From Vicinamibacterales bacterium (GTDB taxonomy: Bacteria > Acidobacteriota > Vicinamibacteria > Vicinamibacterales > CAVVIG01), in NCBI GenBank assembly GCA_046331345.1, contig JAXLRA010000006.1, positions 623,614 to 687,613 on the forward strand: a DNA stretch of 64,000 bases, in the 5' to 3' direction. The notes below the pieces were generated by a model. That model saw only the letters and a program-made list of their open reading frames with translations, did not search any database and was not told where the DNA came from. Position numbers and translations under genes: made by a program. Every line of letters begins with the position of its first letter. Within the stretch, counting starts at the first letter, position 1. This document shows positions 5,611 through 62,653 of this stretch, one piece after another.

Positions 5611-6525
5611 CTATCCGCGGCCAGCCTTCGCCGGCCGGCAGACGCCCTTGAGCGGGCACTGCGCGCTCCCGCGGGGCGTCCCGGATCCACAGGCGTTCAT
5701 CATGCCCAGATGGCAAACCGAGAAGTCGTACTTGATGGGATCCTCGGGATCCAGCGCACGGAGCGACCGGGTGATGTCCAGCGCCATGGGCCAGCCCGGA
5801 CTGGTGTAGCGGGTCAGCCGCAGGCAGCGCCCGACCCTGATGATGTGCGTATCGAGCGGCACGACCAGCCGTGACGGCGAGACGCGGCTCCAGATGCCCA
5901 GGTCGAGCGCGTCGCGGCGCACCATCCAGCGCATGAAGAGATTGAGGCGCTTGCACGCACTCCCGCCGGACGGACGCGGAAAGAAGTACCCGACGCCGGG
6001 CCTCGCAGGCACGCGCCCGTAGGCGGCCCGCAGATCGAGCGCCATGGCTCGCGCGGAGAAGCTGTCCAGCGCGTCACGGACATCCTCGCCGCCCGTGTCG
6101 CCTTCGAGGAAGAAGCCCTCGATCGAGCCGGATCGGTCCAGCATCTGGCGCAGCACCCAGAGGAGCGCGATCACGTCCACGCCGCGCGTCCAGCGGTGCA
6201 CGAAGTCGCGCAGCGGCCCGCCGTCGCGCGCGGGCTCGAACCGCCGGACGAACGCCGCCGGCCCGTCCCCCATCACGTCGGCGACCCGCCCGATCGACTG
6301 CATGACGCTGGTGACCCGGCCGAAGGCGAGTCCGGCCGCACAGAACGCCATCACCTCCTGATCGTCTGGCCGCGCATAGCGCCGCACGATCTGGATGGGG
6401 TCCGTCGCCGAGTCAGCCATGTTGAAGCTGTCGTACAACGCGTCCAGCGTTGGCTTCAGCACATCGGGTGTGCCCCTGCCGCTCCGTCGCACTTCCGTCT
6501 TTCGACCAGCCAATCCGCGATCCAA
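5611..6525 (-). CDS. TIGR02757 (DUF2400) family protein
   Basis: The motifs LNLFMRWMVRRDALDLGIW, VPLDTHIIRVG and DPIKYDFSVCHLG match my recollection of this family. The start is uncertain: TTG 6525, TTG 6513 or GTG 6492. Confidence 0.75.
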   Translation of the reverse strand: MDRGLAGRKTEVRRSGRGTPDVLKPTLDALYDSFNMADSATDPIQIVRRYARPDDQEVMAFCAAGLAFGRVTSVMQSIGRVADVMGDGPAAFVRRFEPARDGGPLRDFVHRWTRGVDVIALLWVLRQMLDRSGSIEGFFLEGDTGGEDVRDALDSFSARAMALDLRAAYGRVPARPGVGYFFPRPSGGSACKRLNLFMRWMVRRDALDLGIWSRVSPSRLVVPLDTHIIRVGRCLRLTRYTSPGWPMALDITRSLRALDPEDPIKYDFSVCHLGMMNACGSGTPRGSAQCPLKGVCRPAKAGRG

Positions 6526-6559
6526 TCTGAAATCAGCAATCTGAAATCTGCAATTCAGG
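6511..6559. repeat. heptad repeat tract (AATCTGA/AATCTGC type)
   Basis: caatccg cgatcca atctgaa atcagca atctgaa atctgca attcagg lies in the divergent region between the TIGR02757 gene and the acylase gene. Confidence 0.75.
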
Positions 6560-12789: not shown

Positions 12790-12894
12790 GGAATTGCAGA
12801 TTGCAGAATTCAGATTGCAGATTCGATTGCAGAATTCCAATCCGACATCGGCGAATTCCAGTTCTGAAATCTGCAATCTGAAATCTGCAATTCC
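12790..12894. repeat. inverted heptad repeat (CAGATTG x5 / CAATCTG arms) in the pyrR/pyrK divergent region
   Basis: Left arm: ggaattg cagattg cagaatt cagattg cagattc. Right arm: gaattcc agttctg aaatctg caatctg aaatctg caattcc. Confidence 0.85.
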
Positions 12895-22626: not shown

Positions 22627-22690
22627 AACTCAGAATTCAGAAGTGAACTTCTGAACGGCCAGTTCTGATTTCTGACTTCAGAGTTCTAGG
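22621..22690. repeat. convergent pair of TAG-anchored heptad 3' elements (candidate bidirectional terminator)
   Basis: Plus strand: TAG AACTCAG AATTCAG AAGTGAA. Minus strand: TAG AACTCTG AAGTCAG AAATCAG. Each TAG is the stop codon of the flanking gene, and the arms match at 17/19 positions. Confidence 0.75.
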
Positions 22691-47615: not shown

Positions 47616-48554
47616 CTACGGAATGGGAGTCACGGGCGGCCGTCCGCTCAGGACGGCGATCACATTCGCAGCGGCGAGGTCTGCCATCGCGGTACGCGTT
47701 TCGGTGGTCCCGCTGCCCAGGTGCGGCACGAGCAGCACGTTCTCCAGCTCGAACAGGTCCGGGTGGATCGTCGGCTCCTCTTCGTACACGTCGAGTGCGG
47801 CACCGGCGATGAGGCGCTGCTTGAGCGCCCACGCAAGCGCACCTTCATCAACCACCGGCCCGCGGGCCGTGTTGATCAGGTATGCGGACCGTTTCATCCG
47901 CGCGAGCGCCTTCTGGTCGATCAGGTGCTTCGTCTCCGGGGTCAGCGGGACGTGCAGCGAGACGATGTCCGAGGTATTGAGCAGCTGGTCGAGCGGCATC
48001 CGTTCGGCGCCGGCCAGCCCCTTGTCGCTCCGCGACGAATAGGCCACCTTCACCCCGAACACCGCGGCGCGGGCGGCCACGGCTGCGGCAATGCGCCCCA
48101 GCCCGACGAGCCCGAGCTGCTTGCCGCGCAGCTCCGTCCCCAGCATGTAGTCGAAGGCCCAGCCCTTCCACTCGTGCCGGCGCACGACGCGCTCGCCTTC
48201 CGAAATGCGGCGGGTGATGCCGAGAATGAGCGCCCATGTGAAATCGGCCACCGACTCGGTCAGCACGTCCGGCGTATTCGTGCAGATGACGTTGTGCGCC
48301 CGGCACGCGGCCACGTCGATGTTGTTGTAGCCCACCGCGACGTTGGCCACCACCTTCAGGTCTGTCCCCGCATCGAGGAGGGCATCGTCCACGCGCTCGG
48401 TCAGCATCGTGATCAGGGCGTGCTTCCCGACCACGGCCGCACGGAGCTGTTCCGGCGTAATCGTGCCCTCGCCGGCAAACACCTCGACGTTGCCGACAGC
48501 TTCGAGCTTCGTAATAACGGAGGACGGGAGCTTGCGGGTAACGAAGATGTTCAT
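47616..48554 (-). CDS. D-isomer-specific 2-hydroxyacid dehydrogenase (glyoxylate/hydroxypyruvate reductase-like)
   Basis: ORF trimmed to ATG 48554. It has the NAD motif GLVGLGRIAAAVA and a catalytic region (NTARGPVVDE...EPT...LVPHLGSGT). Confidence 0.88.
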   Translation of the reverse strand: MNIFVTRKLPSSVITKLEAVGNVEVFAGEGTITPEQLRAAVVGKHALITMLTERVDDALLDAGTDLKVVANVAVGYNNIDVAACRAHNVICTNTPDVLTESVADFTWALILGITRRISEGERVVRRHEWKGWAFDYMLGTELRGKQLGLVGLGRIAAAVAARAAVFGVKVAYSSRSDKGLAGAERMPLDQLLNTSDIVSLHVPLTPETKHLIDQKALARMKRSAYLINTARGPVVDEGALAWALKQRLIAGAALDVYEEEPTIHPDLFELENVLLVPHLGSGTTETRTAMADLAAANVIAVLSGRPPVTPIP

Positions 48555-48634: not shown

Positions 48635-48889
48635 TCAGTGCCCCAGAGACTTGCAGTAGCCGCAGTGGTCGCAACGATGGTTCGGTTCGATGATGCACTC
48701 GCCGTCCGGAGTGCCAGCCACGACGAACAGGCTGTGGCTTGCGTGAATCTGGATGCCTGCGGGTGCCGGCGACGGCGCAGCCGGCTGCGGGTGTTCCGCC
48801 TGCGGCTCGCGCGACACCCCGGGAGCCCCGGCATGCCTCGCGATGGCCTCGCGAATCATCGCGCGCAGATCCTGTTCAGAGAGCGCCAT
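48635..48889 (-). CDS. 84-aa hypothetical protein with an N-terminal encapsulation-peptide-like helix, a Pro-rich linker and a C-terminal Cys/His cluster
   Basis: ATG 48889 has an AGGTGG Shine-Dalgarno and lies 14 nt inside the upstream BMC-P gene. The sequence is MALSEQDLRAMIREAIARHAG - APGVSREPQAEHPQPAAPSPAPAG - ...GECIIEPNHRCDHCGYCKSLGH. Confidence 0.6.
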   Translation of the reverse strand: MALSEQDLRAMIREAIARHAGAPGVSREPQAEHPQPAAPSPAPAGIQIHASHSLFVVAGTPDGECIIEPNHRCDHCGYCKSLGH

Positions 48890-49154
48890 CGATGTCCACC
48901 TGATCGATGATCCCAATGACCGCCGCATCTACGGGCGCGCCCTTCTGCCCGAGCGCCTCGTTGGCAGCCCGCCCCTCGACCACGACCAGCACCTTCTCGT
49001 GCACGCCCGCACCAACACCGTCCACAGCCAGGAGCGGCGTGCCGCGCGGCGTGTCGTCGAGGTTGAGCGGCTGCACCATGAGCAGCTTGGCCCCCTCGAA
49101 CTTCCGGTGTTTCTGCGTCGAGACCACGGTCCCGATCACGCGGGCGATCTGCAT
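48876..49154 (-). CDS. BMC vertex pentamer protein (EutN/CcmL family), copy 3
   Basis: ORF trimmed to ATG 49154. The sequence is MQIARVIGTVVSTQKHRKFEGAKLLMVQPL...AVDGVGAGVHEKVLVVVEG...VDAAVIGIIDQV. Confidence 0.88.
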   Translation of the reverse strand: MQIARVIGTVVSTQKHRKFEGAKLLMVQPLNLDDTPRGTPLLAVDGVGAGVHEKVLVVVEGRAANEALGQKGAPVDAAVIGIIDQVDIDGAL

Positions 49155-49233: not shown

Positions 49234-49500
49234 TTACTCCGTATTCCAATGGTCGACGATGCCGACGATGCCGGCGTCGACGGGGGCTTCGACCGGATAG
49301 AACGGAAAGCTGGCTTCCTTGCCGCGAACGAAGAACACCTCTTCGCCGACGCCCGCGCCGACGGCGTCGACCGCGACGAGCGGGCGTCCGGCCGGTTCCC
49401 GTTCCGGCGTGAGCGGCTGCACCAAGAGCAGCTTGATGCCGGTGAGGTTCTCGTCCTTGCGGGTCGAGACCACCGTGCCGATCACGCGGGCAATCTGCAT
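49234..49500 (-). CDS. BMC vertex pentamer protein (EutN/CcmL family), copy 2
   Basis: MQIARVIGTVVSTRKDENLTGIKLLLVQPL...AVDAVGAGVGEEVFFVRG...VDAGIVGIVDHW. Confidence 0.88.
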   Translation of the reverse strand: MQIARVIGTVVSTRKDENLTGIKLLLVQPLTPEREPAGRPLVAVDAVGAGVGEEVFFVRGKEASFPFYPVEAPVDAGIVGIVDHWNTE

Positions 49501-49501
49501 G

Positions 49502-49771
49502 TCAGGACGAGACTTCGATGGTGTCGATGATGCCGACGATGGCGGCGTCGACCGGGCAGTCCTTCATGCCCGACGCCATGCGCGCCGAGCTGCCCGAGAC
49601 GATGAGCACGGTTTCGCCGACGCCGGCGTCGACCGTGTCCACCGCCACGAGATAGCTGCCCTCGGCCTTGCCCTTCGGATCGACCGGCCTGACGATCAGC
49701 AGCTTGTTGCTGACCAGCCGGGGGTCCTTCCTGGTGGCGACGACCGTGCCTACGATCTTTGCGAGGAGCAC
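49502..49771 (-). CDS. BMC vertex pentamer protein (EutN/CcmL family), copy 1
   Basis: GTG start at 49771, 7 nt after the BMC-H stop. The sequence is (M)LLAKIVGTVVATRKDPRLVSNKLLIVRPV...AVDTVDAGVGETVLIVSGSSAR...VDAAIVGIIDTI. Confidence 0.85.
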   Translation of the reverse strand: MLLAKIVGTVVATRKDPRLVSNKLLIVRPVDPKGKAEGSYLVAVDTVDAGVGETVLIVSGSSARMASGMKDCPVDAAIVGIIDTIEVSS

Positions 49772-49778
49772 CCGACTA

Positions 49779-50069
49779 CTAGGCCTTCGCGTTCGCCTTG
49801 CCGATCGGCAGCACGTCCTCGAGGTTCGCGTGCGGACGCGGGATGACGTGCACGGAGACCAGCTCGCCGACGCGGCGCGCCGCCGCGGCACCGGCATCGG
49901 TCGCCGCCTTCACCGCCGCCACGTCGCCGCGCACAATGGCCGTCACGTAGCCGGCGCCGATCTTCTCCCAGCCGACGAGGCTGACCTTCGCCGCCTTCAC
50001 CATGGCGTCGGCGGCCTCGATCATCGCGACCAGGCCCTTCGTTTCGACCATCCCAAGTGCCTCACCCAT
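49779..50069 (-). CDS. BMC-H hexameric shell protein (PduA/EutM/CcmK-type single BMC domain)
   Basis: [60 protein letters not shown]...VHVIPRPH, with a GGAGA Shine-Dalgarno 8 nt upstream. Confidence 0.93.
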
Positions 50070-50083
50070 CGAGCGTCTCCAGC

Positions 50084-50186
50084 TGAATCTCGAATTTCAG
50101 ATTTCGGATTTCAGAATTCAGATTGGAAATGCGGGACCACAGATTGGTTTCAACCTGAAATCTGCATTCTGAAACCTGCAAGTGCC
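50084..50186. repeat. inverted heptad repeat (TCAGATT / ACCTGAA arms) between the aldolase and BMC-H genes
   Basis: Left arm: ctgaatc tcgaatt tcagatt tcggatt tcagaat tcagatt. Right arm: acagatt ggtttca acctgaa atctgca ttctgaa acctgca. Confidence 0.85.
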
Positions 50187-50198
50187 CTGTCCCTGCCC

Positions 50199-51089
50199 TC
50201 ATTTCAGGCTGCGGATCGCATCCTCGATGAGCGCAGACAGTTCGCGGTATGTTAACCGAATTTCCTCGTCCCCTGCCGGCTCCGCCGCCGTGGCGTTCGG
50301 GAGGGGCGCACCCGGGACAATCGGATCCGGCACCAGCCGGCTCCGGCCGTCGCCCTCGGGCGCCTGCACGACCTGACAGGTCACAGGCTCAGGCCCGGAC
50401 AACAGATCGCCCACAACGGACGGATCCGGACAGATCGGGGCCGGGGCCTTGATCCCGTAATTGTTCCGGAGCCCCTGGAGGCGGTCCACTTCGTCGCGCG
50501 CAATCAGGTTCTCGCGACCGAGCATGCGCGCCACGAGGCTGATCTTGGCGAAGTGCTCGATGGTTTCGAGCTTGTAGTAGGCCGCGAAGAGATCGGCGCC
50601 CAGGGTCAGCGCGCCGTGGTTCGCCAGCAGCATGCCGTCGTGCGCCTTCACGTACTTCCGCACCGCCGCAGGCAGTTCGGACGTCGAGGGCGTCGCGTAT
50701 TCCGCAATCGGAATGCTGCCGAGCGTGGTCAGCACCTCGGCGAGCACGGCCCGGTCGAGCGGAATGCCCGCGACGGCAAACCCCGTGGCAATGGGCGGAT
50801 GCGCGTGGCAGACCGCCCTGGCATCAGGGCGCTGGCGATACACCTCGAGGTGCATCAGCATCTCGGACGAGGGGTCGCGATCCCCCTGGATCTTCTTCCC
50901 GTCCATGTCCGTGATGCACATCATGTCCGGCGTCATGAACCCCTTGCAGACGCTGCGGGGGGTCATGAGCAGGCGGTCCTCGCCGAGGCGGACGCTGATG
51001 TTCCCGTCGTTCGACGCGGTGTAGCCGCGTGAGTACATCCGGCGGCCGACCTCGACGATGTCGGCGCGCAGCTGCGATTCGACGGTCAT
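50199..51089 (-). CDS. class II aldolase/adducin-family enzyme with a Pro-rich linker and a C-terminal encapsulation-peptide-like helix
   Basis: ORF trimmed to ATG 51089. The core reads ASNDGNISVR...PSSEMLMHLEVYRQRPDARAVCHAHPP...LLANHGALTLG. The tail reads ...PDPIVPGAPLPNATAAEPAGDEEIRLTYRELSALIEDAIRSLK. Confidence 0.88.
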   Translation of the reverse strand: MTVESQLRADIVEVGRRMYSRGYTASNDGNISVRLGEDRLLMTPRSVCKGFMTPDMMCITDMDGKKIQGDRDPSSEMLMHLEVYRQRPDARAVCHAHPPIATGFAVAGIPLDRAVLAEVLTTLGSIPIAEYATPSTSELPAAVRKYVKAHDGMLLANHGALTLGADLFAAYYKLETIEHFAKISLVARMLGRENLIARDEVDRLQGLRNNYGIKAPAPICPDPSVVGDLLSGPEPVTCQVVQAPEGDGRSRLVPDPIVPGAPLPNATAAEPAGDEEIRLTYRELSALIEDAIRSLK

Positions 51090-51397
51090 GCGGTGCGGCC
51101 CTGCGTGGCCATCCGCCCGGCGTGCTGGCCCGCGACGAACTGGTCGCGACACCCGGTCGAGCAGAAATAGACGCGATCGCCGTTCGTGCCCGAGAGGGTC
51201 ACGGCCCTGTCAGGAACGACAAAGGTGCCGCAGATCGGGTCGCGCGACATCTGGACGCTGCGCTGGGGTGAGCGCGAACCCGGGCGCGGAGCCGCCGTGC
51301 TCCCATCCTGCATCCCGCGGATGATGCCGGCCCAGAGGCGCGACACCGCCCGGACGACGATCGTCAGCAGGATCGACAGGAGGATGAACCGAAGCAT
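51086..51397 (-). CDS. small membrane protein with a YHS/TRASH-type metal-binding domain
   Basis: ATG 51397 gives the transmembrane helix MLRFILLSILLTIVVRAV, followed by RDPICGTFVVPDRAVTLSGTNGDRVYFCSTGCRDQF. It has ATGA overlaps with both neighbouring genes. Confidence 0.7.
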   Translation of the reverse strand: MLRFILLSILLTIVVRAVSRLWAGIIRGMQDGSTAAPRPGSRSPQRSVQMSRDPICGTFVVPDRAVTLSGTNGDRVYFCSTGCRDQFVAGQHAGRMATQGRTA

Positions 51398-52020
51398 CAG
51401 GCTCCCGGCTTGGCGGCCGTCGTCGTGTTGCCGCCCGGGTGAGCCGACTTCAGGCTGTCCAGGGCGCGCTTCGCGGCCTGCCCTTCGGGACCGTTGGGGT
51501 CGATCTGAATGACCTGCTGCCAGGCCTGTTCGGCCCCCGCCAGGTCCTGCTTGCCGAAGGCCCGGACAATCCCCTGATTCAGGAGTGTCTTGGTGTGCTT
51601 CGGATCGATCTTCAGCGACTCCTCGAACTGGGCCAGCGCCTGATCGGGCTGGTTGGTGTAGTAGTAGCTCACGCCAAGGTCGGTGCTGACGTTGACGTCC
51701 TTCGGGTTCAGCTTGAAGGCTTCGCCGTACCACTTGATGGCGTCGGCGTAGCGCTCTGAGTCGAAGTAGAGGTTCCCCAGGTCGATGCGGGGCTGCGGGT
51801 TCGTGGGCTGTTGCTGGGCCACCGAACTCAGCGCGTTGACCTTGTTCTGGTCCAGCACCGGCGCCGTGGGCGCGGCCGCTGCCGGCGCCGAGGCCGGGGC
51901 TGATGCAGCAACAGGCGCTGCGCCCCCGCGCATGACCGCCTGCTGGCTCCCAATCACCCAGCCGGACAGCAGCCCGAAGACCACACCGGCAATACCTACA
52001 GCAATCGCGTCAGGTCTCAT
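51397..52020 (-). CDS. membrane-anchored tetratricopeptide-repeat (TPR) protein
   Basis: An N-terminal transmembrane segment and an Ala/Pro linker are followed by TPR-like repeats (LGNLYFDSERYADAIKWYGEAFKLNPKDVN...). Confidence 0.75.
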   Translation of the reverse strand: MRPDAIAVGIAGVVFGLLSGWVIGSQQAVMRGGAAPVAASAPASAPAAAAPTAPVLDQNKVNALSSVAQQQPTNPQPRIDLGNLYFDSERYADAIKWYGEAFKLNPKDVNVSTDLGVSYYYTNQPDQALAQFEESLKIDPKHTKTLLNQGIVRAFGKQDLAGAEQAWQQVIQIDPNGPEGQAAKRALDSLKSAHPGGNTTTAAKPGA

Positions 52021-59593: not shown

Positions 59594-60321
59594 CTAGTCA
59601 GCCAGGACGCGCAGGTACTCGCGGACGACGGCGTCGGCCCGACGAACAGCGCGCGGGAGATGAGCGCATGGCCGATCGACACCTCGTCGAGGTGCGGCAG
59701 GCTGCGGAAGAGCACCAGGTTGGCCAGGTCGAGATCGTGTCCGGCGTCTACGCCAAGCCCGCCTCGTGAGCCAGCGTGGCCGCAACCGAGTACTCCTCGA
59801 ACGAGGTCACCGCGGCTTCAGCCCCTTCGCAGTACGGGCGAACGGCATGCCTGGTGTAGAGCCGACGCGATCGGCACCGACCTGCCGCGCCAGCGCGATG
59901 GCGTCCGACACGGATATCGAAGAAGCTGACGCGGATGCCGGCCGCCTTCATGCCGGCGATGACCTCGGGCAACTGCTGTGCGCCAGCGACACGGGTCCAT
60001 CCGGCCTGGCTGGTGATCTCGCCGGGCACCACCGGCACGAGCGTGCACTGCTCGGGGCGGACGGCGTGCACCAGCTCGATGAAATCCGGCCGCGGGTCGG
60101 CTTCCATGTTGAGCTCGACACGCGGGCGCACGCCCTTCAGGTGCTCGGCGATGTCCAGCACGTCCCGCCGCGTGATGTGACGCCGTCCGCGCGGGAGCAC
60201 CGTGATCCCCGACGCCCGCCGCCAGGCAGACGTCGACGGCGTCCAGCACGCGCGGTTCGCGCCCACCCCGCGAGTTCCGCAGGGTCGCCACCTTGTTCAC
60301 GTTGACAGAGAGTCTTGCCAT
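59594..60321 (-). pseudogene. pdxJ: pyridoxine 5'-phosphate synthase, frameshifted in this sequence
   Basis: ATG 60321 gives [20 protein letters not shown]. The sequence continues in other frames as [19 protein letters not shown]..., ...[31 protein letters not shown] and ...[12 protein letters not shown]. At least 5 frame switches were traced by eye. Confidence 0.75.
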
Positions 60322-60375
60322 ATCGGGAGATGCTAAACCTGATTGCTCATCGTGCAACGAGCGCCCGACGACCGG

Positions 60376-61740
60376 CTACCCCAGCTCCGCCTTGACGACG
60401 TCGATGATCGACTGGGCCCAGGCGCGAATCTCGCCCTGGTCCTTCCCCTCGAGCATGACGCGCAGGAGCGGCTCGGTGCCCGAATAGCGGACGAGCAGGC
60501 GGCCCTGCCCGGCCACCCGCTGCTCGACGTGTTCGCGATGACCGCCGCCACGGCCGGCACTGACGCGAGGTCCACTTTCTCGCGCACGCGCACGTTGAGC
60601 AGCACCTGCGGGTAGTTCGTCAGGTCGTCGGCCAGTTCGGCCAGCGACCGGCCGGTCGCCTGCACGGTGCGAAGGACGTTCAGGGCGGTACACAGGCCGT
60701 CGCCGGTGAACAGATAGTCGGAGAAGATCACGTCCCGACTGCTCACCACCGAGCGCGATCCCGCGCTTCAGCATCTCCTCCATCACGTACTTGTCGCCAA
60801 CCGACGTGCGGATCATCTCGATCCCGGACCTGCGCAGCGCCAGTTCGAGTCCGATGTTGCTCATCACGGTGGCGACGATGGCATTGCCGGGCAGGCGCCC
60901 CTCGCGCTGGAGCTGCCGCGCGCACATCAGCAGCACCGCATCGCCGTTGACGACGCGGCCGAGATGGTCGACGAAGATCGCCCGGTCGCCGTCGCCGTCG
61001 AAGGCCACGCCCATCTGCGCGCCGGACTTCACGACGAGTGCGGAGAGCCCCTCGGGATGTGTGGACCCGCACAGCAAGTTGATGTTGCGGCCGTCCGGCT
61101 CGGCGCCCGTCACCACGGTCTCGAAGCCGAGGCCACGGAACAGCCCGGGAGCGACCGGGGTCGTGGCGCCGTTCGCGCAGTCGATTGCCAGCGTGAAGCC
61201 GCTGAAGAGCGAGGGGTCCGGCAGCACGACGCGCAGGTGCTCCAGGTACGAATCGACCAGCACCGCGCCGGGCACCTCTTCGGGGGCTCCGTCGCGGACG
61301 TCCCACGATGTGTCGGCGACGATGCCCTCGATCTCGCGCTCCACCGCCTCGGTGAACTTCTCCCCGCGTCCGGAGAACACCTTGATGCCGTTGTCCTCGA
61401 ACGGGTTGTGTGAGGCGGAGATGACCACGCCCGCGTCGTACTGCGCGAAGGCGCGGGTGAGGTAGGCCACGGCTGGCGTCGGCACGACACCGACGCTGGT
61501 CACCTCGGCGCCTTCGCCGCCGGCGCCGTGCGCGAGTTCGGCCTCGATCCAGCCGCCGGATTCACGCGTGTCGCGCCCGACCAGCAGGTGTGGTGATTCG
61601 GTGCCGTGCGGCAGCGCCCGGACCAGGGCGGCCCCGAGACGGCGAACGGTTGCATGGTCGAGCGGAAACACGCCGGCCTTGCCGCGTACACCGTCGGTTC
61701 CGAAGAGGCGCACGGGTTCGCGCGAGTCAGTTTTTGCCAC
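60376..61740 (-). CDS. glmM: phosphoglucosamine mutase, with two compensating frameshifts near 60.75 and 60.53 kb
   Basis: It reads LFGTDGVRG...SASHNPFEDNGIK...FDGDGDR...GGEQSG. The expected (H)VIFSDYLFTGDGLCTALNVL...NYPQVLLNVRV lies in the frame of ORF 60333..60749. The main frame resumes at GRLLVRYSGTEPLLRVMLEG. The start is GTG 61740 or GTG 61713. Confidence 0.85.
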   Translation of the reverse strand: MAKTDSREPVRLFGTDGVRGKAGVFPLDHATVRRLGAALVRALPHGTESPHLLVGRDTRESGGWIEAELAHGAGGEGAEVTSVGVVPTPAVAYLTRAFAQYDAGVVISASHNPFEDNGIKVFSGRGEKFTEAVEREIEGIVADTSWDVRDGAPEEVPGAVLVDSYLEHLRVVLPDPSLFSGFTLAIDCANGATTPVAPGLFRGLGFETVVTGAEPDGRNINLLCGSTHPEGLSALVVKSGAQMGVAFDGDGDRAIFVDHLGRVVNGDAVLLMCARQLQREGRLPGNAIVATVMSNIGLELALRRSGIEMIRTSVGDKYVMEEMLKRGIALGGEQSGRDLLRLSVHRRRPVYRPERPSHRAGDRPVAGRTGRRPDELPAGAAQRARARESGPRVSAGRGGGHREHVEQRVAGQGRLLVRYSGTEPLLRVMLEGKDQGEIRAWAQSIIDVVKAELG

Positions 61741-62653
61741 TGGAGATCTGCACCTGGATGGTTGCGGGAAGGATGCGGGCGACGCCCGCGCGCGCCGGGT
61801 TCTCGACATGCACGGGCAGGGTGTACGTGCCGGGATCGAGACCGGCCAGGTCGACCCGCGCGACGACCTCGTCGCTGTCCACGCGGTTCAGGCCGTCACG
61901 GCTGCCACGCAGCACGATGTCGACGGCGTGCGGAACGGGCCTGGCAATCAGGCCTTCGCGCAGGTGCTCGATGTGAACGGGGCGTTCGCGCAGCGTGCGC
62001 TCCACCGGACCTGGAATCACGTCGACCGTCACGCGCGCCTGCCGCGGCGTCTTCATCCTGAGCGCGGGGTCCTGGAACCCCACCGTCACCCCGTCCGCCA
62101 CGGCCGCACTCGCTCCGCCGACGTTCACGGGTTCGGTCAACGCCTCGGTCACCCGGTCGATCGCGCTCTGCGGACCGATCACTTCGATGGTCGGCGGCTC
62201 GACGGACACCTTGCCGACCACGAACCCCGGCGCGGGATCGCCTTCGACGGCAGGCACCACCGGGACGATCTTCGCCTGCGACGCCTCGAAGGCCAGCGCC
62301 ACCGTCGTCGGCGAGACCTGCACCACCTGCACGCCGTACGGCACGCGGACCTGCTCGGGCGTGAGCTGATACAGCCGTCGCCCTGGCCTGGCCGACTTGA
62401 GGTCGAGCTGCGCCACGATGTCTCCGGGACCGATGAGGGACAGCGCGCTCGACGCGCCGCGCACCCGCACGTCGACGAGCGACGGCGCTTCACCCATCAT
62501 CTCGAGGCCCCCCGGAAACTGCTGGAACTCGAGCGGCACGCGAAGGCCACGCTCGACCACCTCGTCGCCCGAGACGAACAGCCACAGGATCGCCGCGATG
62601 GCCACGGAGACGGTCTTCAGGCCCAGGTGCCTGAACGGCCACGGCGCCTTCAT
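61727..62653 (-). CDS. cdaR: YbbR-domain protein (CdaR-like regulator of diadenylate cyclase)
   Basis: It has an N-terminal transmembrane segment followed by repeated YbbR-like beta modules. It lies between cdaA and glmM. Confidence 0.75.
   Translation of the reverse strand: MKAPWPFRHLGLKTVSVAIAAILWLFVSGDEVVERGLRVPLEFQQFPGGLEMMGEAPSLVDVRVRGASSALSLIGPGDIVAQLDLKSARPGRRLYQLTPEQVRVPYGVQVVQVSPTTVALAFEASQAKIVPVVPAVEGDPAPGFVVGKVSVEPPTIEVIGPQSAIDRVTEALTEPVNVGGASAAVADGVTVGFQDPALRMKTPRQARVTVDVIPGPVERTLRERPVHIEHLREGLIARPVPHAVDIVLRGSRDGLNRVDSDEVVARVDLAGLDPGTYTLPVHVENPARAGVARILPATIQVQISSGKN

Follow-up and report, generated by a model that had tools for sequence, protein, structure and literature searches.

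The locus examined here raises the question of whether two unrelated proteins, a class II aldolase and an 84-aa protein, carry the same kind of encapsulation peptide (EP) at opposite termini and are packaged inside one microcompartment (BMC) shell. The window, a stretch of 64,000 nucleotides from a Vicinamibacterales bacterium of soil, encodes at positions 48830-48889 on the minus strand the sequence MALSEQDLRAMIREAIARHA, the N-terminus (residues 1-20) of the 84-aa protein, and the aldolase, four genes upstream of the small protein, ends in LTYRELSALIEDAIRSLK. Our answer is that both helices are EPs binding the same lumenal shell surface and co-packaging the aldolase and the Cys4-containing small protein, a reading to which we assign a probability of about 0.8. 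It draws on the two sequences and their conservation, the register that the helices share, the operon context, and a predicted free helix and linker, and from these we infer shell binding and a lumenal location for both proteins. Because the helix pair is already present in the catalog of Sutter et al. 2021, the finding confirms rather than discovers, and since the supported reading agrees with the annotation of ACI loci given there, the interpretation was already known. The leads that carry some novelty are the Cys4 module of the small protein and a constraint at the nucleotide level, not the helix pair.

The microcompartment operon

The Pfam scan of the window's ORFs, which covered ~39.5 to 54.6 kb, gave matches along the operon to PF00596 (aldolase), PF00936 (BMC-H), PF03319 (BMC-P, three times), and PF02826/PF00389 (2-hydroxyacid dehydrogenase). 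Shown below are the genes with their coordinates in the window, their strand, and the basis of each assignment.

51397-52020, minus strand: TPR protein gene, with an ATGA overlap with the next gene (YHS-like protein).
51086-51400, minus strand: gene for a ~104-aa protein with a hydrophobic N-terminus, probably membrane-spanning, and a YHS/TRASH-like Cys motif (weak PF04945 match, E = 1e-3).
50199-51089, minus strand: class II aldolase gene (PF00596), 296 aa from the ATG at 51089.
49779-50069, minus strand: BMC-H shell hexamer gene (PF00936, E = 5e-30; EutM-like match in NCBIfam).
49502-49771, minus strand: BMC-P shell pentamer gene 1, GTG start (PF03319; CcmL/EutN-like match in NCBIfam).
49234-49500, minus strand: BMC-P shell pentamer gene 2 (PF03319).
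48876-49154, minus strand: BMC-P shell pentamer gene 3 (PF03319), with a 14-nt overlap with the small-protein gene.
48635-48889, minus strand: 84-aa small-protein gene, last of the shell block (ORF and translation, homologs).
47616-48554, minus strand: D-2-hydroxyacid dehydrogenase gene, no EP (PF02826 and PF00389; no match to the combined EP profile described below).

For comparison, 80 species-level genome loci were retrieved via the small protein, drawn from 140 confirmed stretches. The YHS/TRASH-like gene, which is joined to the aldolase gene by an ATGA overlap, lies directly upstream of the aldolase in 67 of these 80 loci. The same overlap supports 51089 as the most likely aldolase start within the ORF at 50199-51152, which terminates in ...PDPIVPGAPLPNATAAEPAGDEEIRLTYRELSALIEDAIRSLK. 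The junction between the aldolase and BMC-H genes is a 129-nt repeat-rich spacer, and two hairpins lie between the small-protein gene and the 2-hydroxyacid dehydrogenase gene. At the end of the shell block, the stop codon of BMC-P 3 lies within the start of the small-protein gene; in many other inspected loci this overlap is ATGA, and the start position of the small protein is conserved. Judged from this arrangement of reading frames, translation of the small protein is coupled to that of the third pentamer. From the aldolase through to the dehydrogenase, gene order was kept in ~70 of the 80 species-level acidobacterial genomes. Nearly all related loci are labeled Acidobacteriota or Vicinamibacterales, and an identical small protein is on record in a Vicinamibacterales MAG. 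Those conserved flanking genes that we checked have housekeeping functions: QueC, radical-SAM (QueE-like), DUF72, cyclophilin, and endonuclease III-like genes were confirmed by Pfam, and pdxJ-, glmM-, ybbR-, cdaA-, and folP-like genes were recognized from their translations only.

Both the gene set and the phylum fit the ACI-type BMC of Acidobacteria as defined by Sutter et al. 2021 (Nat Commun 12:3809, PMC8217296, Supplementary Data 2), to which we assigned the locus. [quoted passage not shown] It is a member of the ACI type, with nothing essential different. Two points go beyond the entry. First, the entry gives three conserved Cys, whereas here four are invariant and lie at a fixed distance from the C-terminus. 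Second, the catalog includes no comparison of the two EPs and no nucleotide-level conservation. In the literature we found no experimental work on any ACI microcompartment and nothing usable on the EP of the Haliangium aldolase.

The small protein and the aldolase tail

Translation of the ORF at 48635-48889 reproduced the 84-aa protein on which the original prediction was built. The protein consists of an EP helix of ~17 residues, a disordered, Pro/Ala-rich linker that spans 15-47 residues in the family, and a 38-residue C-terminal domain with four invariant Cys. Its parts, and those of the aldolase C-terminus, are as follows.

48833-48883, minus strand: N-terminal EP helix of the small protein, residues 3-19, LSEQDLRAMIREAIARH (AF2 helix 5-20, conservation).
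48752-48832, minus strand: linker of the small protein, variable and rich in Pro/Ala, residues 20-46 (poorly conserved, indels).
48638-48751, minus strand: Cys/His mini-domain at the C-terminus of the small protein, residues 47-84 (HxSH...DGxC-[VLI]-IEP-x3-C-x-H-C-G-[YF]-C-x-S-x-G-H-COOH).
50325-50453, minus strand: conserved segment of the aldolase extension, YGIxAPAPxCxDP ... CQV[LV][EQ]AP ... RLVPD (66 orthologs).
50271-50330, minus strand: variable aldolase linker, PDPIVPGAPLPNATAAEPAG, residues 254-273 (unconserved and of varying length among 66 orthologs).
50202-50255, minus strand: C-terminal EP helix of the aldolase, LTYRELSALIEDAIRSLK, residues 279-296 (conservation, amphipathicity, AF2).

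Homologs of the small protein included 35 close ones and, in an exhaustive profile search, 257 representatives at 50% identity. Almost all of the best 150 of these 257 were stand-alone proteins of 60-135 aa that share one layout beginning at residue 1, and no non-BMC homologs were present among the matches listed. The helix was conserved across 66-68 genomes, with R9 at 100% and R13 at 99%, and its codons varied freely at synonymous sites. The distance from the helix to the HxSH motif ranged from 15 to 47 residues, with a median of 22. The arrangement C-x7-C-x2-C-x2-C-x5-COOH with a terminal Gly-His (C65, C73, C76, and C79) was found in 175 of 182 family members; His49, His52, and His75 were common but not universal. 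By these sequence criteria, the small protein is a real, conserved family. Searches of Pfam, NCBIfam, and PDB sequences matched it to no family or fold. In the AF2 model, residues 5-20 formed a free-standing helix (pLDDT of 83-87) beside a linker with pLDDT of ~50 or below over most of its length. The Cys/His domain was modeled with pLDDT of 50-60, too low to justify a fold search.

Two identities for the small protein were considered and not upheld. A ferredoxin-type [4Fe-4S] domain would carry CxxCxxCxxxCP, whereas the motif here is C-x7-C-x2-C-x2-C followed by xSxGH-COOH, with no CP; a Fer4_2 match appeared in Pfam for 1 of the 35 members, at E = 0.61. A detached tail of the ACI aldehyde dehydrogenase (an EP plus a ~50-aa domain) was not supported, since no dehydrogenase fusions were found among the best 150 of the 257 representatives.

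More than 7,900 aldolase homologs were found; the best 120 range from 265 to 355 aa in length, and most have 288-305 aa. Its best NCBIfam matches were all below the cutoff, with 3-oxo-tetronate 4-phosphate decarboxylase first and FucA next. PF00596 spans only residues 31-205 of the ORF and stops ~90 residues short of the helix, and the C-terminus reads ...DEEIRLTYRELSALIEDAIRSLK. Within the helix, IRLTY, L, L, and A were invariant across orthologs. Upstream of it, C220, C238, and RLVPD were conserved at ~90% or better in the 66 orthologs, and variability in the tail was confined to the stretch between RLVPD and GEIRLTY. AF2 placed a helix at residues 281-294 of 296, preceded by a coil with pLDDT of ~30. 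Given a mean pLDDT of 52 and a shallow alignment, with at least 79% identity to the query, this model is only weakly informative. The independence of the aldolase helix therefore rests mainly on the variability of its linker. Both linkers quoted in the original prediction were found in the sequences, and the idea of a linker joining each helix to its domain held for the small protein, where this stretch is unconserved and 15-47 residues long. For the aldolase it held in the variable stretch between RLVPD and the helix; the earlier part of its "linker" includes conserved Cys-bearing segments, which are a point against the EP reading.

Three features, namely, the small size of the 84-aa protein, the coupling of its gene to that of the third pentamer, and the aldolase tail with its conserved Cys, suggested a variant of the EP reading in which the small protein would act in assembly as an adaptor, by analogy with CcmN, and not as passive cargo. 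In such a scheme, the EP end would bind the shell or the aldolase EPs and the Cys4 end, possibly in a metal-dependent manner, would bind a second partner, e.g., a pentamer or the aldolase extension, such that the small protein would tether or size the cargo core. Several observations would fit. First, the small gene always lies directly after the BMC-P triplet and is apparently coupled in translation to the third member. Second, one EP and a 38-residue domain are too small for an enzyme. Third, the two conserved Cys and RLVPD in the aldolase extension could form a docking site. Finally, the EPs of metabolosomes were reported in a 2025 study (PMC12339742) to drive cargo condensation besides binding the shell. 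CcmN of the beta-carboxysome is likewise nonenzymatic, and its EP links the cargo core to the shell, making it a possible functional analogue. In sequence, however, the small protein is unrelated to CcmN, which has hexapeptide repeats instead of a Cys4 module as its second domain and a C-terminal EP that reportedly does not drive condensation (PMC12339742), and the Cys4 domain is equally compatible with a redox or metal cofactor site. We therefore consider an adaptor role possible but rather unlikely.

Comparison of the two terminal helices

The targeting reading, in which both helices are EPs for one shell, depends on how alike the helices are, and they had been described originally as nearly the same. 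Over 16 aligned residues, the aldolase and small-protein helices share the 6 identities first noted, with a BLOSUM62 score of 27. Among the 95,728 six-frame 16-mers of the window, the small-protein N-terminus tied as the best non-self match to the aldolase helix, and in the reciprocal search the aldolase helix was the second-best match to the small-protein helix; by shuffling, the match had a p of 3e-4. The same ranking was made in 65 loci with both genes (~15,900 16-mers per locus), where the small N-terminus was the best non-self match to the aldolase helix of its own genome in 42 and among the top two in 54. When the helices were slid along each other in 66 genome pairs, the mean score was positive at register 0 only (+19); all other shifts gave -4 to -19. 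The columns common to both helices, with positions in brackets, are a hydrophobic residue (1), Thr (2), an acidic residue (5), Leu (6), Ala (8), Leu/Met (9), Ile/Val (10), Asp/Glu (12), Ala (13), and Ile/Val (14). Each helix also has invariant residues of its own: the aldolase keeps Tyr3, and the small protein keeps Arg7, Arg11, and Arg16.

Profiles gave a more restrained picture. In the six-frame translation of the window, a profile HMM of the aldolase helix did not retrieve the small protein, nor did an HMM of the small-protein helix (24 sequences) retrieve the aldolase. Given this failure to cross-detect, we treat the likeness of the two helices as a shared motif rather than as common descent. 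A single profile built from both helices and run against 893 kb of six-frame translation matched only 72 aldolases, 77 small proteins, and 4 extra sequences, the last being small-protein ORFs that lack the Cys motif through frameshift, truncation, or divergence. The dehydrogenase and the neighboring proteins thus carry no such helix, and no EP-bearing ORF besides the aldolase and the small protein was found with this profile in the window or in the 6-kb flanks of the 80 loci.

The motif can be set against what is known of EPs, which are defined as terminal helices of ~15-20 aa joined by a poorly conserved linker, on proteins that are encoded with shell genes and whose non-BMC homologs lack the helix (Kinney et al.; Aussignargues et al. 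2015, PMC4594438). Class II aldolases of the PVM, PVM-like, and GRM5 microcompartments have C-terminal EPs (PMC4594438) and resemble the ACI aldolase in enzyme family, terminus, a helix of ~17 residues, and a long linker (23-81 residues there), whereas the ACI aldolase belongs to a distinct clade and has an extension with conserved Cys and RLVPD. A closer comparison was possible with three targeting tags that have been used experimentally (PMC5405515), PduP MNTSELETLIRTILSEQL, PduD MEINEKLLRQIIEDVLRDMK, and EutC MDQKQIEEIVRSVMASMGQ. Both ACI helices align without gaps and in the same register to PduP(1-18), PduD(1-20), and EutC(1-19). The ungapped scores were 33 for aldolase-PduD, 25 for small-protein consensus-PduP, and 26 for PduP-EutC, compared to 23-33 for the ACI pair. 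Like the small protein, these tags of the Salmonella PDU and EUT systems occupy ~18 residues at the extreme N-terminus and are followed by a linker, and like both ACI helices they have the hydrophobic register 6, 9/10, 13/14 and mixed charges one turn apart. They differ in microcompartment type and cargo, and the invariant R7, R11, and R16 (small protein) and Y3 (aldolase) are particular to ACI. Since the scores of the ACI pair equal those among validated EPs, "nearly the same" was an overstatement; the two helices are no closer to each other than are validated EPs of unrelated systems, and what they share is the same generic EP motif.

Other properties of the helices bear on a second alternative, that they are oligomerization or intramolecular elements, e.g., coiled-coil contacts within the aldolase oligomer or packing of a helix against the Cys domain, and that their likeness reflects only a helix-forming composition. 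The hydrophobic moment of the aldolase helix was 0.55, in the top 2% of shuffles, whereas that of the small-protein helix (Eisenberg scale) was 0.18, no better than shuffles and similar to the 0.23 of the validated PduP; by this measure the aldolase helix is strongly amphipathic and the small-protein helix is not. A hydrophobic stripe at 6, 9/10, and 13/14 is present in both. Co-variation of the two helices in orthologous pairs, another expectation of the original prediction, was weak: the within-genome score was 24.4, barely above the 23.8 +/- 0.28 of permuted partners and confounded by phylogeny, and is not convincing. The low moment, the lack of cross-detection by the HMMs, and an aldolase AF2 model too weak to exclude packing would all suit a nontargeting role, and together with the marginal co-variation they are points against the EP reading. 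However, mere composition would hardly yield one register across 66 genomes or first rank in 42 of the 65 loci, and linkers that vary from 15 to 47 residues are hard to square with a helix that packs on its own protein. In addition, AF2 sets the small-protein helix apart from the rest of the chain, the Pfam aldolase domain stops well before the helix, and both helices match validated EPs in register. A nontargeting role is therefore improbable. A spurious 84-aa ORF, or a chance likeness in a GC-rich genome, might be suspected from the many long spurious ORFs in the window and the lack of a Pfam or NCBIfam family, but it is effectively refuted by the conservation data, i.e., the 257 representatives, the invariant C-terminal motif, the in-frame linker indels, the conserved start that overlaps the upstream stop codon, and the synonymous variation over a conserved protein sequence, and the likeness by the rank and shuffle tests.

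The proposal that both proteins are cargo of the same shell is, as far as sequence can tell, supported by the operon, the terminal helices, which were conserved in orthologs from 66 genomes, and the linkers, and it matches the published annotation. Under this targeting reading, both helices would dock on one lumenal surface of the shell with the same N-to-C polarity, whichever terminus tethers them. The two helices may also associate with each other, as do metabolosome EPs that condense cargo. The aldolase is probably an oligomer with several EPs, by analogy with characterized class II aldolases. As the shell assembles, it would then be packaged together with the small Cys4 protein.

A nucleotide-level constraint and the probable packaged set

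The start of the aldolase EP is also constrained at the level of nucleotides.

50247-50264, minus strand: 18-nt element GAAATTCGGTTAACATAC, which encodes E-I-R-L-T-Y where the aldolase EP begins (synonymous-site conservation).

Its codons, GAA ATT CGG YTA ACA TAC, were fixed at synonymous sites in 66-71 genomes, with ATT at 100%, ACA at 100%, and Leu encoded solely by CTA or TTA. In the rest of the aldolase gene, the median codon entropy was 1.06 bits over 159 columns of conserved residues. All remaining aldolase codons that reach 90% fixation have G or C in the third position; the conserved Ile codons among them are 97-98% ATC. The small-protein helix has no such constraint. Matches to the 18-mer in metagenomes encoded EIRLTY at the same position and in the same context in 120 of 120 cases. 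A promoter scan of 47.4-52.2 kb found nothing, an Rfam search on the element returned only subthreshold microRNA noise, and no conserved complementary partner was present within 330 nt. Recurrent matches of 7-9 nt from this last search sit on conserved BMC-H codons at three different positions. A frameshift at the element into the TAA of the +1 frame was not supported by any conserved slippery site.

Beyond the catalog, we tentatively propose two readings that we hold to be rather unlikely. In the first, the small protein would be a metal or iron-sulfur module of the lumen, or else an adaptor that depends on metal; in the second, the 18-nt element would be a control point at the nucleic acid level. 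The metal reading may fit the gene content of the locus, where a YHS/TRASH-like metal-binding protein is encoded along with an aldolase that is probably metal-dependent and has two conserved Cys in its tail. For the element, candidate roles are that of an internal promoter or a processing site serving the shell genes, or that of a programmed pause ahead of EP translation. If these readings were true, the EP of the small protein would bring a Cys4 site into the compartment, and the control point would tune the amount of EP-bearing aldolase relative to the shell.

To the published description, the analysis adds the four invariant Cys, the coupling to the third pentamer gene, and the unexplained nucleotide constraint inside the aldolase EP. 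It also points to two natural putative targeting tags for one shell, one per terminus. ACI microcompartments are abundant in soil Acidobacteria, and a list of the packaged proteins narrows the chemistry that they may carry out. That packaged set would comprise the aldolase and the tiny Cys4 protein, apparently without the adjacent dehydrogenase.

Conserved elements in the aldolase gene

Two features were found toward the 3′ end of the class II aldolase gene.

50247-50264, minus strand: 18-nt element GAAATTCGGYTAACATAC, codons E-I-R-L-T-Y, inside the aldolase gene where the encapsulation peptide begins
50325-50453, minus strand: conserved segment of the aldolase C-terminal extension

Among 66 to 71 species-level genomes, the 18-nt element was conserved at synonymous sites and used codons ending in A or T: ATT and ACA were each used 100% of the time, and leucine was encoded only by CTA or TTA. 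This is the opposite of the rest of the genome, where the codons otherwise fixed are G/C ending. All of the metagenome matches (120 out of 120) lay in the same context. The element contains a −10-like TAACAT and, in the +1 frame, a TAA. A promoter scan of 47.4 to 52.2 kb found no promoter, no Rfam family matched, no conserved complement was found within 330 nt as a pairing partner, and no slippery site was found.

The enzyme-proximal part of the aldolase "linker" is also conserved, with the motifs YGIxAPAPxCxDP, CQV[LV][EQ]AP, and RLVPD, and the two cysteines in these motifs are each ∼90% conserved or better. This segment could be a second functional element, for example a putative metal- or partner-binding site.

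Organization of the operon and its flanks

Intergenic arrays of 7-nt-period repeats were detected.

50094-50181: repeat array
2444-2562: repeat array
6522-6554: repeat array
12793-12891: repeat array
22661-22686: repeat array

The repeat units are GAAATCT, GCAATCT, and similar sequences, often arranged in inverted blocks, and such intergenic repeats gave 25 matches, where chance alone would give 0.8. The 129-nt spacer that separates the aldolase gene from the BMC-H gene is filled by one of these arrays, whose fold energy was no better than that of shuffled sequences (z = −0.2).

The third BMC-P gene runs 14 nt into the small-protein gene, past the start codon of the latter (48876-48889), and at the equivalent junction many of the other loci inspected, out of the 80 species-level ones, have an ATGA overlap. 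Similarly, ATGA overlaps connect the TPR gene to the YHS-like gene (51397-51400) and the YHS-like gene to the aldolase gene (51086-51089). These start/stop overlaps between successive genes suggest that the operon genes are translationally coupled.

Farther along lies another group of ORFs.

59748-61809, minus strand: pdxJ-like and glmM-like ORFs

They seem to be split across frames, 59748-60266 pairing with 59818-60357 and 60333-60749 with 60376-61809, which suggests frameshifts that reflect either assembly errors or pseudogenes. The pdxJ/glmM-like genes of other genomes lie no more than 6 kb from the microcompartment operon; here, the two are separated by ∼7.7 kb (52.0 to 59.7 kb) in which a hydrolase and an aminotransferase are encoded.

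Enzymes and cysteine motifs

For the aldolase (50202-51089, minus strand), the top NCBIfam match was 3-oxo-tetronate 4-phosphate decarboxylase, followed by FucA, and for the dehydrogenase (47619-48554, minus strand), it was glyoxylate reductase. All of these matches were below the curated cutoffs.

Cysteine motifs or hydrophobic N termini mark three other proteins.

48638-48700, minus strand: small-protein C terminus with Cys motif
51086-51400, minus strand: YHS-like protein, ∼104 aa (weak PF04945 match, E = 1e-3)
51397-52020, minus strand: TPR protein with a hydrophobic N terminus, upstream neighbor of the YHS-like gene

The small protein has four invariant cysteines spaced C-x7-C-x2-C-x2-C, whereas the catalog mentions three conserved cysteines for the ACI small protein (PMC8217296). 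The motif is always followed by exactly five residues, Gly-His being the last (175 of 182 family members). Its sequence suggests a candidate Cys4 site for a metal or an iron-sulfur cluster. Searches of Pfam, NCBIfam, and PDB turned up no relative.

A match to the TPR protein was found in 71 of the 80 loci, and in 67 of the 80 the YHS-like gene directly precedes the aldolase gene. The YHS-like protein combines a hydrophobic N terminus, which is probably membrane spanning, with a YHS/TRASH-like Cys motif, and its presence adds to the putative metal-binding theme of the locus.
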